Position numbers: made by a program | Origin: Bacilli bacterium | GTDB taxonomy: Bacteria; Bacillota_I; Bacilli_A; RFN20; CAG-826 | Length of the DNA stretch: 64,000 bases | Direction of reading: 5' to 3' | NCBI GenBank assembly: GCA_045130875.1 | Contig: JBGUQI010000022.1 | Span: forward strand, 215,795-279,794 | Shown here: one piece after another, positions 48,001 to 54,000 of the stretch | How positions within the stretch are numbered: the stretch's first letter is position 1 | Layout: every line of letters starts with the position of its first letter

Positions 48001-51000
48001 GGGGTTGGTTTTTCTATGTGCTCTTCATTCTTATCTTAATCGGTCTTTTAGGAGGACTTGGATATCTCCTATTCATCTTAATTAGGAAATATGTCCACTT
48101 CTATAAGAGAGAATTAGATAAGCAAAAACTCCAAGAGCAAGTAGAAAAATTAAATTATGAATTATTTGAAGCCATCCAAGAAAAGGATAAAATCCTTAAC
48201 CTTAAGGTTGGTGCTTTAGGAATTGAAAATCCTGACTTATCACAAAAAGACAAGGAAACCGTCGAAGAAGTCACTTCCCGTTTCCCCAAACTCAAATATG
48301 TCGATCACGAATATAAAGATGTCGACACCAATATTGAAGAAGTGCCTAGCTTATCTTTAGAAGAATTATGTAATTCCTTTAGATTATTCGCCGCTTCTCA
48401 ATTACACCTCTATTACACAATCGATACCATTAGACAATTATTCGCTGGTATGTCCGCGGCGAAGTTAATCATCTTAGAAGGTATTTCCGGTACCGGTAAA
48501 ACCTCTTTAGCGTATGCCCTTGGTAAATACTTCGATAATGACTCTGCGATCTGCTCTGTCCAACCATCTTGGAAAGATAGAAGTGAATTAATCGGTTACT
48601 ACAATGAATTTACCAAGAAATTCAATGAAACCGAATTCTTAAGAGCGTTATATACCGCGACATATCGTAAAGATATGAATATCATCGTCCTCGATGAAAT
48701 GAACTTAGCCCGTATCGAATACTACTTCGCGGAATTCTTATCCATCATGGAAATGCCTAACAAGAATGAGTGGAAGATTGAATTAATTAACTCCTATGAC
48801 CCAAGTGACCCAGGTCACGTCACTCAAGGTAAGATGTTAATTCCTCAAAATGTCTTCTTCTTTGGTACCGCGAATAACGATGATAGTACCTTCACTATTT
48901 CCGATAAGGTCTATGACCGTGCGATTTCCTTATTCTTTGATAACAAAGGTATTCCCTTTGATGCCGAATACACTGAACAATTACACGTTCCATTTGAACA
49001 GATCAACTCTCTATTTGAAGACGCTCAAGTGCAATTCCCTGTCTCTGAGAAAACCTTGGATAAATTTGAAAAACTCGATGATTTCGTGATTAAGAAATTC
49101 AAGATTGCCTTCGGTAACCGTATCTTAAAACAATTAAAGATCTTTATCCCCACTTATGTGGCCTGTGGAGGCACGGAACTCGATGGCTTAGACTTTATCT
49201 TTACCAATAAGATTTTGAAGAAATTTGAGGCCTTAAACATCGCTTTCTTAAGAGATGAATTAAAACAATTACACGCGGAGATTGATAAGCTCTTCGGTAA
49301 AGGTACATTTAAGATGGCCCATCAAAAGATTGATGACCTCATCAAATTGAGTTAATAACTATGCCAGAACAAGAAAAGAAAAAGAGAATAGTTTTATCAA
49401 AGTATCAAAAGTCCAATAAGAAATTAAAAGAGAGACTTAATACTTTTGTTAAGCACGATAAAACTTCTAATGAAATATTAGAATCGATTTCTAATGGAGA
49501 TAATAGATATCTACGTAGTCATCGTATTGAAACCACTAACTATGACCCCAAATGGTTAACGATGATCGAAGATTGTATCCCTGAATTAGGAGAAATCATC
49601 AAGAATCCCCGTAAAGTCACTCAAACAGTGACTGATATCGTCCCTGTCGAATTAGCGAAAAAGACTAACGCTGAATCAGTCAGACATTTAGCGAGCCACA
49701 CTCAATATGTGAAAAGCGTCGATGAATACGGGAATGTCACTCCTAATAAAGTTTTAAATATTGGAAGTGATGATAACTATTTAATTTATGAAAATAAATT
49801 TATCGCCACTTTAGTGAAGAGATTAGTCATCTTCGTGGAGAAGAGATATGAATTCCTCACTAAATATGTTCCTTTAAAGGAAACTGATGTTTTGTTATAT
49901 AAAACTAAATCCATCATCGATGGTTCTGTCGTCGAGATAGAAACTAAAGTTAAAGTGACGAAGAATGCCGAAGATGATGTTAAAGGTAATAGCACTACTG
50001 CGTATATCAAACGTATTGAAAGAGTGAGAAACTATATCATCTACTACATGAATAGTGACTTCATGAAGATGTTTAGAAATGAAAAGGATGTCACTGGACA
50101 AATCCTTCAAACTAACATCATCAGAAAGAACAAGAATTATCATAAATGTTATTTACTCTATAGATATATCACTGGTTATAACCAGTTAGGTATCGACTAT
50201 AAAGTGAAAGAACAATATACCGCATATACGGAACAACAGATGAAAGAGATTAATAATCTTGCTTTATCCGCATTCCTTGCCGTGGATCATAATGGACCCA
50301 GTCATCTCGCTTTAGAGAAAGAGAAGAAATATAAACCCCGTATTCTCACCTCTATCGATGATGAACCCTTTGTGTATGGTCCTATTCCTAGTAAACCCGT
50401 GCAATATATCCGCTGCGATGACCAATACTTCTTAGATCAAGAGAAATCTCTTAATGAGATTAAATTAAGACCTACGAAAGAAGAAGCGGAATATCAAAAA
50501 GATGATGCGGAAAAGAAAAAGAAACTCGAAGAGGAAAAGAAACGCGTCGCCGCTTTAAAGAAGAGAAGAGAGCAAGAACTCAAAGAGTTCAAGAAGAAAC
50601 GCGAAGCCTTAAGAGAAGAAAAACGTAAACAAGCGGAAGCGGAACGTATCCGTAAGGAAGAAGAGAGAAAGAAGAAAGAACTCGAGAGAATCGAGAAAGC
50701 TCGTAAAGACTTAAAAGAACAAGCTGTTGTCCATCGTAAAGAAGATGAACAAAAAGCTAAAGAAGAAAAAGCCTTAGAAAAGGCGAGACAAAAACTCCTT
50801 CAACAACAAGAAAAACAAGAACAAGAAGAAACTCCCACTAGTGAAACTGGTAACGAATAATGAGTGAAGAGACAAAGAAGAAAAGAGAAAAGAAACCGAA
50901 GAGCAAACTAAGGAAAACCTTAGAATGGGTTTTCACCGGTCTTTTCCTTGCTGTATTTGGCTTCTTCTCTGTCATGATGATCGTCGGTTTTGCTTCTCGA

Positions 51001-54000
51001 AAAGATAACCACAATGTCCCCAATTATGGGGGCATTCAAGTACTAGAAGTACTTACTGATTCTATGGAACCCACTTATAAAACCAAAAGTGTCGTCTTTG
51101 TAAAAAAGGTGAAGATGGAATCCTTTAAAGAAGGTGATGATATCACCTTTATGTATTACATCTCCTCTTTGAGAAAGACGATGCCCATGACTCATAGATT
51201 GATGAGTATTAAAACTCCAGAAGAAACCGGAACTGGACATTATGAATTTGTGGCTCATGGGATTAATAAGAATTCCACACAATGTAATGGTGATTGTACC
51301 TATCAAACCCAAGTCTTTAATGAGACCCAGGTATTAGGTAAAGTTGTCGGTCATTCCATCGTTATCGGTGCGGTATTTAACTTTATGACCACACCATGGG
51401 GGTTATTGATATTACTGTTAATACCAGCATTATATCTCATCATCACCTCAGTGATTGACATAGTCAATGCCGCGAAAGATGATGAGGATAAAGCTCCCGC
51501 TTTAGAAGGGGGAGGGGGTTCTGGAGCCCTAGATAAATTATCCAAAGAAGATATTGAAAGACTTAAGCAAGATATGCTTAATGAAATGATTGAAGAAAAA
51601 AGTAAAGGAGGGAAGAAAGATGAATAGAAGTAAAAAACTTTTAGCGGGAATGATAACACTTCTAGTGATTTTCTTGCTCCTTATGGGTGCCACCATCATC
51701 TTGTGGTATGTCGAATTAGTGAAGAATCCTCTCTATGTTACTTTAGAGATTATCGCCTTAGTATTACTCGTGGGTGGCTCTGCATTCTTATTCGCTTTAT
51801 ATATCAATGAACAGAGAAGCATTAAAGAAGGTATTAAAGAGAATGAATACAATCTTCATAGAAAAGTAGTTTTCTATTCCTATAACTACTTCTCTAGAGC
51901 CTTATCTTCTACATTAAGTAGAAACAAGAGAAAGACCGGTTATTTAATCGTCTTTAACGCGGTTAAATCACACGCGCTTACCACATACACAATTAACAAG
52001 ACCGCGGACTTCAATGGTTATATCGCGGACTTCATCTTAGATAAACATGTCCTCGGTAAGGAATATGGAGATTTTAACTTCTGTTTCTACCGTGGTAACT
52101 TCCTATTCTATTTGATGTGTGATGAAACTAAACTAAATAACTTCATCACCGATATGGAAAATGAAGCCTATCGCTTAGTGAGAGAAATGGACTTCCGTAT
52201 CAATGTCCAACCAACATTTGGTATCTATGAACATGAAGGTGGTAAAGAAGAATCCATCTATGAGATGACTAATAAAGCTATTGCCGCGAGAGAAGTCGCG
52301 GAAAAGAATTATGAAAACGCTTTATTCTTCTCTGAAGAGATGATTCAAGATACATCCTCTAATGAAGCGGATGAAATCGCCAAAGCCTTAGAGAACAATG
52401 AATTCGTCGTCTACTATCAACCTAAGTTCAATCTTAATGGTAGAGAATTCAATTCTTCTGAAGCTTTAATTAGATGGAACTCCCCCACGAGAGGTTTATT
52501 ATCTCCCATGAGATTTATCAACTCCGCGGAAAACGGAGGTTTAATCCATAGAATTGATATGTTCGTCTTCGAACAAGTCTGTAAGGACTTAGATGAGACT
52601 AAGAGAAAAGGAAGAAGACTCATTCCTGTCTCTATTAACTTCTCATTATATGAGTTCTATCATCCAACATTCGTTAAGGATATCGCCGCGATTATTGAAA
52701 AATATAATACCAATCCTAATTTATTAGAGATTGAAATCGTCGAAGGCACAACCGCAGCGAATATCTTCTTATCCATCTCCATCTTAAAGAGATTAAAAGA
52801 GATTGGTTTAAAGATCTTAATGGATGACTTCGGTGTTGGTTTCTCTAACTTTAATAACTTGAAGAACCTTCCTATCGATGTCATTAAAATCGATAAATCA
52901 TTTATCGATAATATCACCACGGATATCAAATCTAGAGAAATTACTAGATTCATGATTGAATTCGCTAAAGAAATCGGCTTAGAAGTCGTCGCGGAAGGTG
53001 TTGATAATCAAAAGCAGGTGGATTTGTTAAAGAAATTCAAATGCGACACTATTCAGGGATTCTTCTACTCTAAACCTTTACCACGTAATGAGTTTGAGAG
53101 ATTTATCGCCACGAATACATTTGAGAAGAGGAGGGACGCTAGATGATTTTAATTTATGGTAGTACACGTGATGACGTGTCATATTTTGAAACTCGTATTC
53201 AAAATAAAAAAGAAGATACCATCCTCGGTAAATACAAGTTTATCACCGGCACGATGTCCTCTCAAAAAGTCGGTGTGGCCTATGGAGGATACACTAACTA
53301 TTTAAGTACGGCGATTATCTCCACGATTCTCGCGAAGAATATCGATATCGTCTTAGTGATCAATGTCGGTAAATGTTCCGCTTATGGGGAAGAATTAAAA
53401 ACTGGAGATATCGTTATCTCTAAACAAACCTATCTTGCAGAAGTTAATCAAGTGGGCATCAAAGATGCGATTTTAGGACAAGTTCCCACCTGTCCTCAAA
53501 TCTTTACCACGGATGCCTATGTCTTAGAGTTATTAAATAACTGTGTAAATAAAATTATTAAAAAGAATAATTCCAAGATTGGGACATTTATGTCTATGGA
53601 AAAGATTCTTCATAGAACTAGTGATTTCGATCATATCGCCGCTTCTAATGGAGTGATATTAGGAAATAAAGAAGATGTGGTATTCGACTCCTGCACAGGC
53701 GGAGTCGCATTAGCGAGTTATCTTCATAACATCCCTTATATCTCTATCGAAGTCGTAGAGAATAGAATTGATGAAGCTCCATCAATCTCTAGTTATGTAA
53801 AAGTCATCGAACACTATCTCGATATCGGTAAGGCTGTGGCCTCCTTTATCGGAGAGATATCCCGTAATGATGTCATCATAGGAAATGAATAATCATTATT
53901 TATATAAATAATAAGAAGGTGAGAATATGGAACAATATTATTTAAATAATCGGAACAGAAGGAAACGCTTTAAAAAGAAAAAAGATAATTCCGTCGAATT

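Follow-up and report, generated by a model that had tools for sequence, protein, structure and literature searches.

An unannotated clade of predicted ER/archaeal-type signal peptidases with a rewired acidic residue in McrBC-linked gene clusters of uncultured gut Bacilli

What kind of signal peptidase lies inside an operon of regulatory and secreted proteins in an uncultured Bacilli bacterium, and which proteins would it process? The question is raised by a single gene in a 64,000-nucleotide stretch of DNA, referred to here as the window (GenBank assembly GCA_045130875.1, contig JBGUQI010000022.1, positions 215,795 to 279,794 of the forward strand). An initial annotation had proposed a dedicated, SipW-like signal peptidase of the endoplasmic reticulum (ER)/archaeal type. 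The most likely product of the gene is an active signal peptidase of the ER/archaeal type (S26B, Ser/His), and we consider it probable that this enzyme is both active and dedicated to the gene cassette in which it is embedded. Judged by its sequence, the protein is best placed in a clade that lacks annotation, has a rewired acidic residue and conserves both tails, which are predicted to be cytoplasmic; it does not represent a Bacillus SipW orthologue. The coordinates of the features discussed are listed in Table 1.

The peptidase carries the three boxes to which the initial annotation had pointed, DSMEP (aa 67-71), GDDITF (aa 92-97) and THRL (aa 111-114). The HMMER comparison with TIGR02228 (sigpep_I_arch, NCBIfam), proposed at the same time as a check, passes with 56.1 bits over aa 28-199 against a cutoff of 51.85. 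When the single sequence is compared with the PDB, SEC11A/SEC11C alone are matched, marginally (E=0.015), and a profile built from 20 family members likewise retrieves only SEC11A/C chains (E=3.3e-6, 1.7e-5 and 2.1e-4). Neither query matches a SipA or LepB-type chain in the PDB at E≤10. The predicted catalytic residues Ser68 and His112 can be aligned with Ser56 and His96 of SEC11A, which, together with the TIGR02228 match, upholds the proposed Ser/His type as distinct from LepB. SEC11A and SEC11C are thus the sole solved structures that the family profile recognizes. Compared to the SEC11 and archaeal enzymes, the window peptidase is a stand-alone bacterial protein with a second transmembrane (TM) helix and conserved tails, and both conserved aspartates are absent. 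The open reading frame (ORF) did not arise by chance, because a word-indexed search returns 663 homologues at E≤1e-3 and the relatives found by HMMER at E≤1e-30 form at least 115 clusters at 50% identity; the exhaustive HMMER search yields 8,526 matches at E≤1e-3. Precomputed Pfam domains are present in 0 of the 120 best homologues, and the few named ones are called 'hypothetical protein' in Bacilli metagenome-assembled genomes (MAGs). The clade is therefore effectively unannotated.

The most distinctive feature of the clade is found in its active site. In an alignment of 197 distinct peptidase relatives, which underlies the conservation counts given here, S68, M69, T111, H112, G134 and N136 are invariant (197/197), and D94 is present in 191. 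A 'GIN' box takes the place of the canonical 'GDN', and its central position 135, which aligns with D116 of SEC11A, is occupied by Ile in 187 sequences, Thr in 6 and Val in 4. D106 of SipW is provisionally assigned to the same box position. More distant relatives still read TDSMEP...THR...GDN. A comparison of 30 GDN-type with 75 GIN-type representatives reveals that the two types differ in a reciprocal manner. At position 135, the GDN type carries Asp and the GIN type Ile, Thr or Val. At position 94, Ile or Val is found in 26/30 of the GDN type, as in SipW and SEC11A, compared to Asp in 70/75 of the GIN type. Position 151 is mostly Asp in the GDN type (20/30) and Gln in the GIN type (71/75), and Q151 of the window peptidase thus stands where its GDN-type relatives mostly have a second Asp. 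As a consequence of the swap between positions 135 and 94, the second Asp of GDDITF is recognized as the residue acquired in exchange for the canonical Asp. It is possible that the carboxylate has been relocated from the GDN box to Asp94, and the reciprocal gain suggests compensation rather than decay.

Several observations weigh against an active, SipW-like enzyme. The canonical Asp is absent from position 135 in all 197 relatives, and the loop following the GIN box offers no conserved substitute, with 36 of 197 sequences lacking any Asp there. In SipW, the residues Ser47, His87 and Asp106 form a triad reported as essential (PMC8767453). Ser, His and two Asp are normally retained in ER-type and archaeal signal peptidases; both Asp are essential in yeast and one in archaea, and nearly all archaeal enzymes have all four residues (PMC2913515). 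In addition, the Pfam scan detects Peptidase_S26 and S24 only below threshold (E~0.05), and the Bacillus SipW equivalog model NF046067 fails with 64.2 bits against a cutoff of 190. The expected family match was hence borne out by the archaeal-type model TIGR02228 and not by Pfam S26 or the Bacillus SipW equivalog. The GIN clade, which keeps Ser and His without the canonical Asp, provides a natural test case for the unsettled choice between a Ser-His-Asp triad and a Ser-His dyad in ER-type peptidases. A pair of cysteines, C142 and C146, lies in the ectodomain, in the loop that connects the GxN box to the QxQ box. It occurs in about half of the GIN clade; among the GDN-type sequences, Cys142 is found in 23/30 and a second Cys in most of the sequences listed. 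The pair might form a disulfide or bind a metal.

The genes directly upstream connect the peptidase to McrBC-derived systems. A McrB-like NxD-type AAA+ GTPase is followed by a McrC-like partner, which lies immediately 5' of the peptidase gene in 76 of 85 related loci, the remainder being contig ends. The motif GTANNDD is found in 69/69 McrB-like orthologues. The GTPase contains a hydrophobic segment (aa ~53-82) and then a charged heptad-like stretch, consistent with a TM helix and a coiled coil, and is not matched by the FtsB/DivIC hidden Markov model (HMM). PF09823 (DUF2357, the McrC N-domain) matches 19 of 25 McrC-like orthologues (best E=1.1e-8), the window copy on its own being unmatched, and the C-terminal 125 aa of the McrC-like protein consist of 62% K/R/E/D. 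A PDB search with this protein, by single sequence or profile, gives no match, and no nuclease is detected in it. A McrB GTPase that has the shortened NxD signature and is fused to an FtsB-like TM helix and coiled coil, a DUF2357 McrC with coiled coil and an associated protein of the signal peptidase family are the features of CoCoPALM. These clusters were named in 2023-24 in one paragraph and one supplementary table row, with their analysis deferred; the peptidase of the example was labelled SipA-like from an HHpred match to 4N31, and the authors' own HHpred value for the FtsB-like segment is E=1.2 (PMC11090510 / PMC10542128). We found no follow-up analysis in the literature. By its gene content, the cluster in the window fits CoCoPALM, with the exemplar RHC33374.1 compared by its published description only. 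The CoCoPALM text is silent on a substrate cleavage motif and on the EAL genes, PNP-like gene and riboswitches of the present cluster.

The SipA-like label of the CoCoPALM example raises the alternative that the window peptidase is a non-catalytic SipA/LepA-like assembly factor, acting as a chaperone or scaffold for a pilus or fibre. The loss of both canonical Asp, including the counterpart of the SipW Asp106 reported as essential, would agree with such a role. SipA itself has lost its catalytic residues. Unlike SipA, the window family maintains Ser68 and His112 without exception; its profile finds SEC11A/C and no SipA chain, no protein of the cassette matches a sortase family, and the candidate substrates contain no LPXTG. 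The reciprocal gain of Asp94 also argues for compensation. On the grounds of the ER-type profile, the intact Ser/His pair and a cluster free of sortase and LPXTG, we rejected the SipA-like label for this family, in contrast to its use for the published example, and regard an assembly factor as unlikely.

If the peptidase is an active enzyme, its candidate substrates are encoded nearby. Five neighbouring families (S1, S2, S3, B and C) possess an N-terminal signal that ends in T/S-x-A↓W-[F/Y]. Across the related loci, the pattern G-[TS]-x-A-W-[FY] is found in S1 (30/30), S2 (5/5), S3 (8/9) and B (79/83), and 21 further uncategorised ORFs of these loci carry an AW[FY]-type motif. Over 181 distinct N-termini, collected with a pattern that did not include position -3, this position is occupied by Thr or Ser in 176. 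Within the window, the cleavage motif is confined to proteins of the cassette, and other exported proteins, such as the lipoprotein at 28224, are without it. While B and C are full-length paralogues (hhalign 99.8%, E=1e-30), profile comparison reveals that S1, S2, S3, B and C as a group have only their first 35-55 residues in common. The mature TasA chain in PDB 8aur begins at A28, corresponding to cleavage at TWA↓AF; the TasA site and the cassette motif therefore agree at positions -3 (Thr), -1 (Ala) and +2 (aromatic). The motif of the neighbours is thus TasA-like, conserved and specific to the cassette, in agreement with the initial annotation. An aromatic P2' residue impairs cleavage by LepB, and TasA is processed by SipW (PMC10269814), which supplies a mechanistic reason for a dedicated enzyme at this locus. 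The likeness to Bacillus SipW also extends to the position of the gene beside its presumed substrates.

Protein A, the product of the first operon gene, has an N-terminal TM helix and no AW[FY]. This helix ends in FLGxxxGxFT in 46/53 sequences. Protein A may be an uncleaved membrane anchor or may be processed differently. Upstream of the cassette core, eight loci (L003, L021, L022, L026, L034, L042, L048 and L049) contain extra paralogues in ORFs at ~1.2-4.7 kb of the locus, with N-termini of the type GSISGSxAWYQYSTRA. The candidate substrate set is therefore larger in those lineages.

Does the resemblance to TasA reach beyond the signal region? The AlphaFold2 model of S1 is a β-sandwich (pLDDT 83) with a disordered N-terminal segment of 42 residues that extends past the predicted cleavage site, as expected in such a model for a donor strand, and a fold search of 350,542 PDB chains ranks the TasA fibre 8aur first. 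Against a TasA-like identity stand the weakness of this match (E=0.0098, probability 0.63, TM-score ~0.3), an hhalign probability of 0.2% between the S1 profile and validated TasA, and a profile comparison of S1 that detects no TasA sequence similarity beyond the signal region. The model of B (pLDDT 77) likewise has no fold match in the PDB, its best hits being generic β-sandwiches (E=0.21). The S1 family profile finds nothing relevant among PDB sequences, and the NCBIfam/Pfam models for Peptidase_M73/TasA, camelysin and the SipW-cognate signal match none of S1, S2, S3, A, B, C and tm at E≤10. A TasA-like nature of the substrates is thus only weakly supported. S1, A, B and C have a C-terminal block in common, [FYW]-x-E-G-x-D followed by phi-S-F. 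The four proteins are otherwise unrelated in sequence, and hhalign aligns S1 and A with only 60% over 21 residues. The block hints at a common β-sandwich ancestry. Comparable arrangements are known from the sipW-bsaA-bsaB-bsaC operon of Clostridium perfringens and from the archaeal AbpA bundling pili, both TasA-like donor-strand fibres, where a dedicated SipW gene or a signal peptidase cleavage site precedes a β-sandwich subunit with an N-terminal strand that lacks order in the monomer, as in the S1 model (PMC11580942, PMC9245690). In contrast to these subunits, S1, B and C are without detectable TasA sequence homology and their fold support is weak, and the bsa and AbpA systems have neither a McrBC-derived GTPase module nor cyclic di-GMP (c-di-GMP) wiring.

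The peptidase is predicted to span the membrane with two helices, so that its catalytic domain would be extracellular and its two tails cytoplasmic. The first 23 residues have a net charge of +6, the ectodomain between TM1 and TM2 comprises ~130 aa, and both tails contain conserved positions. Among the 197 relatives, the N-tail motif retains K14 in 193, S15 in 169, K16 in 171, R18 in 171 and W23 in 181, and the C-tail motif retains L235 and K236 in 196, S228 in 189, and D231 and R234 in 182 each. SipW is likewise reported to have both tails in the cytoplasm, and in B. subtilis its cytoplasmic C-tail takes part in regulation (PMC8767453). The resemblance to Bacillus SipW comprises the SMEP and THR boxes, N- and C-terminal membrane helices and a cytoplasmic C-tail (PMC8767453). 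The differences lie in the Ile that replaces the equivalent of SipW D106, in the Asp gained at GD-D-ITF, in a longer and unrelated C-tail with its own motif, and in the additional conserved N-tail. The partners also differ, as TapA and TasA accompany SipW, compared to McrB/McrC-like, EAL and PNP-like proteins here.

The order of the cassette, (S1)-tm-A-B(1-3 copies)-C-AAA-CC-peptidase-EAL1-PNP-EAL2, where AAA and CC denote the McrB-like and McrC-like genes, is invariant in 85 loci; genes missing from some of these loci are consistent with contig ends. It is kept in relatives at E~1e-31 to 1e-34, and the GDN-type relatives retain the peptidase-EAL-PNP trio with a 505-aa and a 470-aa gene upstream. 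In the window, S1 (terminator at 39686-39707), S2-S3 and tm each have their own terminator. From A to EAL2 (44922-57055), intergenic gaps range from -11 to +34 nt, and the peptidase is the sixth gene of this nine-gene operon. Its ATG is overlapped by 1 nt by the TAA of the McrC-like gene, and its stop codon TAG (51625-51627) lies inside EAL1, whose likely start, ATG 51620, is preceded by AAGGAGGG at 51605-51612. The resulting overlap of 8 nt substantiates the earlier claim that the peptidase stop overlaps the start of the EAL gene. Of 82 related loci, 63 show an overlap between the peptidase stop and the closest EAL ATG in frame, and the gap is ≤7 nt in 13 more. This tight packing with overlapping codons also confirms that the peptidase is embedded in one operon with the EAL gene, and from the gene arrangement it is predicted to be translationally coupled to the McrC-like gene upstream and to the EAL gene downstream.

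Expression of the cassette appears to be linked to c-di-GMP. A c-di-GMP-I aptamer forms the leader of the A to EAL2 operon, a second GEMM-I-type aptamer lies in tandem upstream of it and matches a variant model at a score below the gathering threshold, and a further c-di-GMP-I aptamer precedes S2-S3. Of 14 related loci scanned, 12 have an aptamer immediately in front of gene A; in locus L001 this site is occupied by a tandem pair, and in other loci aptamers precede S2/S3-like genes. For the expression platform of the riboswitch, the predicted fold is not significant (z=-1.85). As riboswitches and two EAL proteins are combined in one operon, the connection of the system to c-di-GMP involves RNA and proteins alike.

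These regulatory features bear on the alternative that the peptidase is the general housekeeping signal peptidase of a reduced-genome Bacilli lineage that came to lie in the operon by chance. The hosts belong to reduced, Mycoplasma-related lineages, and a regular-expression search of the window and of ~1.3 Mb of related loci, which represent a very small part of each genome, finds no LepB-type box-E motif. On the other hand, the gene keeps the same place in the operon across all 85 loci and shares overlapping codons with cassette genes, and the c-di-GMP riboswitches ahead of the operon would be unlikely regulators of a housekeeping enzyme. Moreover, AW[FY] is absent from other exported proteins of the window, including the lipoprotein mentioned above. 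We therefore judge the housekeeping explanation to be quite unlikely compared to an enzyme dedicated to the cassette.

Downstream of the peptidase, the motifs of EAL1 look intact by eye, and the PNP-like gene always follows EAL1 in the cassette (77 loci). Its product scores far below the NCBIfam nucleosidase cutoffs. In EAL2, visual inspection reveals that EAL is changed to ELL and DDFG to ADNYTG, and that the KxD motif is gone. Instead of acting as an enzyme, EAL2 may serve as a receptor for c-di-GMP. The presence of a McrB-like NxD GTPase with a McrC-like partner invites a different interpretation of the entire cluster, namely a McrBC-derived anti-phage or conflict system related to CoCoNuT, in which the peptidase would mature or release membrane or secreted effectors. 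In PADLOC, the AAA domain of the GTPase is recognized by the candidate model PDC-M26A (E=1.3e-36), and PNP_UDP_1 domains occur in some defence effectors. Contrary to such a system, the McrC-like protein has no detectable nuclease and the other cassette proteins have no PADLOC match. Secreted β-sandwich proteins, two EAL proteins and c-di-GMP-I riboswitches rather indicate control of a surface structure or biofilm, and the gene order is invariant instead of patchy over at least 80 species-level genomes. An anti-phage function is thus very unlikely.

Returning to a dedicated processing enzyme, we propose that the peptidase would remove the signal peptides of S1, S2, S3, B, C and the extra paralogues. 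By analogy with TasA (T-W-A↓A-F), bulky aromatic residues at P1'/P2' would render these proteins poor substrates of LepB and cognate for the window peptidase. Cleavage would free a new N-terminus, W-F/Y-..., and in TasA-like proteins the equivalent segment is the donor strand for fibre assembly. Signal processing, the McrBC-derived membrane GTPase module and c-di-GMP turnover would be produced together. In this scheme, we infer the exact cleavage site, the activity without the canonical Asp, fibre formation and the contacts of the tails with McrB, McrC and EAL proteins. A more far-reaching and rather doubtful model would make the peptidase the extracytoplasmic processing subunit of a membrane machine. 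Here, the NxD GTPase pair, anchored by TM helix and coiled coil, would touch the tails of the peptidase, and GTP hydrolysis and the c-di-GMP level would be coupled to cleavage and to donor-strand polymerisation of TasA-like fibre subunits in gut Bacilli poor in cell wall, with the catalytic carboxylate moved to Asp94.

SipW-type peptidases are gatekeepers of TasA-like biofilm fibres and are known mainly from Bacillus and Clostridium. The present family adds a large clade missed by Pfam, which comprises 115 or more clusters and is carried by uncultured Bacilli of gut and rumen, in at least 109 species-level genomes. In a scan of GTDB species genomes, all 109 carriers are uncultured gut or rumen MAGs. 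Their labels are Bacilli, Mollicutes, Erysipelotrichaceae and Bacillales, with Clostridium sp. CAG:288 among them; CAG-288 is a family of the order RFN20 and is predicted to lack peptidoglycan (PMC10868615). Three cassette contigs (L053, L012 and L015) are labelled Gammaproteobacteria or Lachnospiraceae, probably owing to binning or labelling noise. The predicted signal ends provide the first concrete candidate substrate set and cleavage motif for McrBC-linked CoCoPALM clusters, and the cluster as a whole suggests an as yet unexplored system of surface structures in gut bacteria that are abundant and uncultured.

Table 1. Positions of the cassette genes, peptidase segments and RNA elements in the window.
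Feature	Position	Strand	Remarks
S1, candidate major secreted substrate, 283 aa	38816..39667	+	...GTVA↓WFT; monocistronic; predicted cleavage after A27
C-terminal block of S1	~39560-39660
c-di-GMP-I aptamer before S2-S3	39820..39893	+	RF01051, 54.7 bits (gathering 35)
S2, candidate substrate, 327 aa	39911..40894	+	...STIA↓WFM; signal-end motif
S3, large candidate substrate, 1012 aa	40896..43934	+	...ASLA↓WFI; signal-end motif
tm, small membrane protein, 121 aa	44131..44496	+	cassette head; same position in 39 loci
Second GEMM-I-type aptamer, tandem, upstream	44622..44698	+	RF03168, 57.6 bits, E=2e-12; gathering 65.9 not reached
c-di-GMP-I aptamer, leader of A to EAL2 operon	44694..44773	+	RF01051, 62.8 bits (gathering 35)
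Protein A, 283 aa	44922..45773	+	first operon gene; N-terminal TM helix
C-terminal block of A	~45690-45770
Protein B, candidate substrate, 328 aa	45763..46749	+	...GTYA↓WFT
C-terminal block of B	~46660-46746
Protein C, candidate substrate, 361 aa	46753..47838	+	...LSVA↓WYV; [AS]W[YF] in 63/68
C-terminal block of C	~47740-47835
McrB-like NxD-type AAA+ GTPase	47838..49355	+	PDB McrB 6hz4, E=7e-6; AAA_5 and PRK11331 matches
McrC-like partner	49361..50860	+	DUF2357-related N-terminal domain; C-terminal charged coiled coil
SipW-like ER/archaeal-type signal peptidase I	50860..51627	+	ATG start; 255 aa; TIGR02228 match
N-tail motif KKPKSKxRKxxEW (aa 11-23)	50890..50928	+	predicted cytoplasmic; conserved
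TM helix 1 (aa 24-45)	50929..50994	+	predicted from hydropathy and charge
DSMEP box	51058..51072	+	predicted nucleophile Ser68 at 51061-51063
GDDITF box	51133..51150	+	Asp94 at 51139-51141, gained in this clade
THR box	51190..51198	+	predicted general base His112 at 51193-51195
'GIN' box in place of 'GDN'	51259..51267	+	Ile135 at 51262-51264
Cys pair C142/C146	51283-51297	+	ectodomain loop
TM helix 2 (aa 178-200)	51391..51459	+	predicted from hydropathy; P189 in 197/197
C-tail (aa 201-255, 55 aa), motif LSxEDxxRLKxxL	51460..51624	+	predicted cytoplasmic
EAL1, membrane-anchored EAL phosphodiesterase	51620..53146	+	PF00563, E=2.9e-70
PNP_UDP_1 / MTA-nucleosidase-like protein	53143..53892	+	PF01048, E=3.8e-14
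EAL2, large membrane protein, degenerate EAL domain	53927..57055	+	PF00563, E=2.2e-29

Outside the cassette, the window contains two housekeeping RNA elements unrelated to it, a class B RNase P RNA (12764-13087, minus strand, 288 bits) and an FMN riboswitch (20628-20740, minus strand, 85 bits). Over ~56000-64000, the GC content falls from ~0.36 to ~0.31. This region includes a convergent gene pair (57188-59129, minus strand, lies within it) encoding a 466-aa protein with a Walker-A-like motif, GENGIGKTS, and a 185-aa partner, and may represent a separate, possibly defence-related island.

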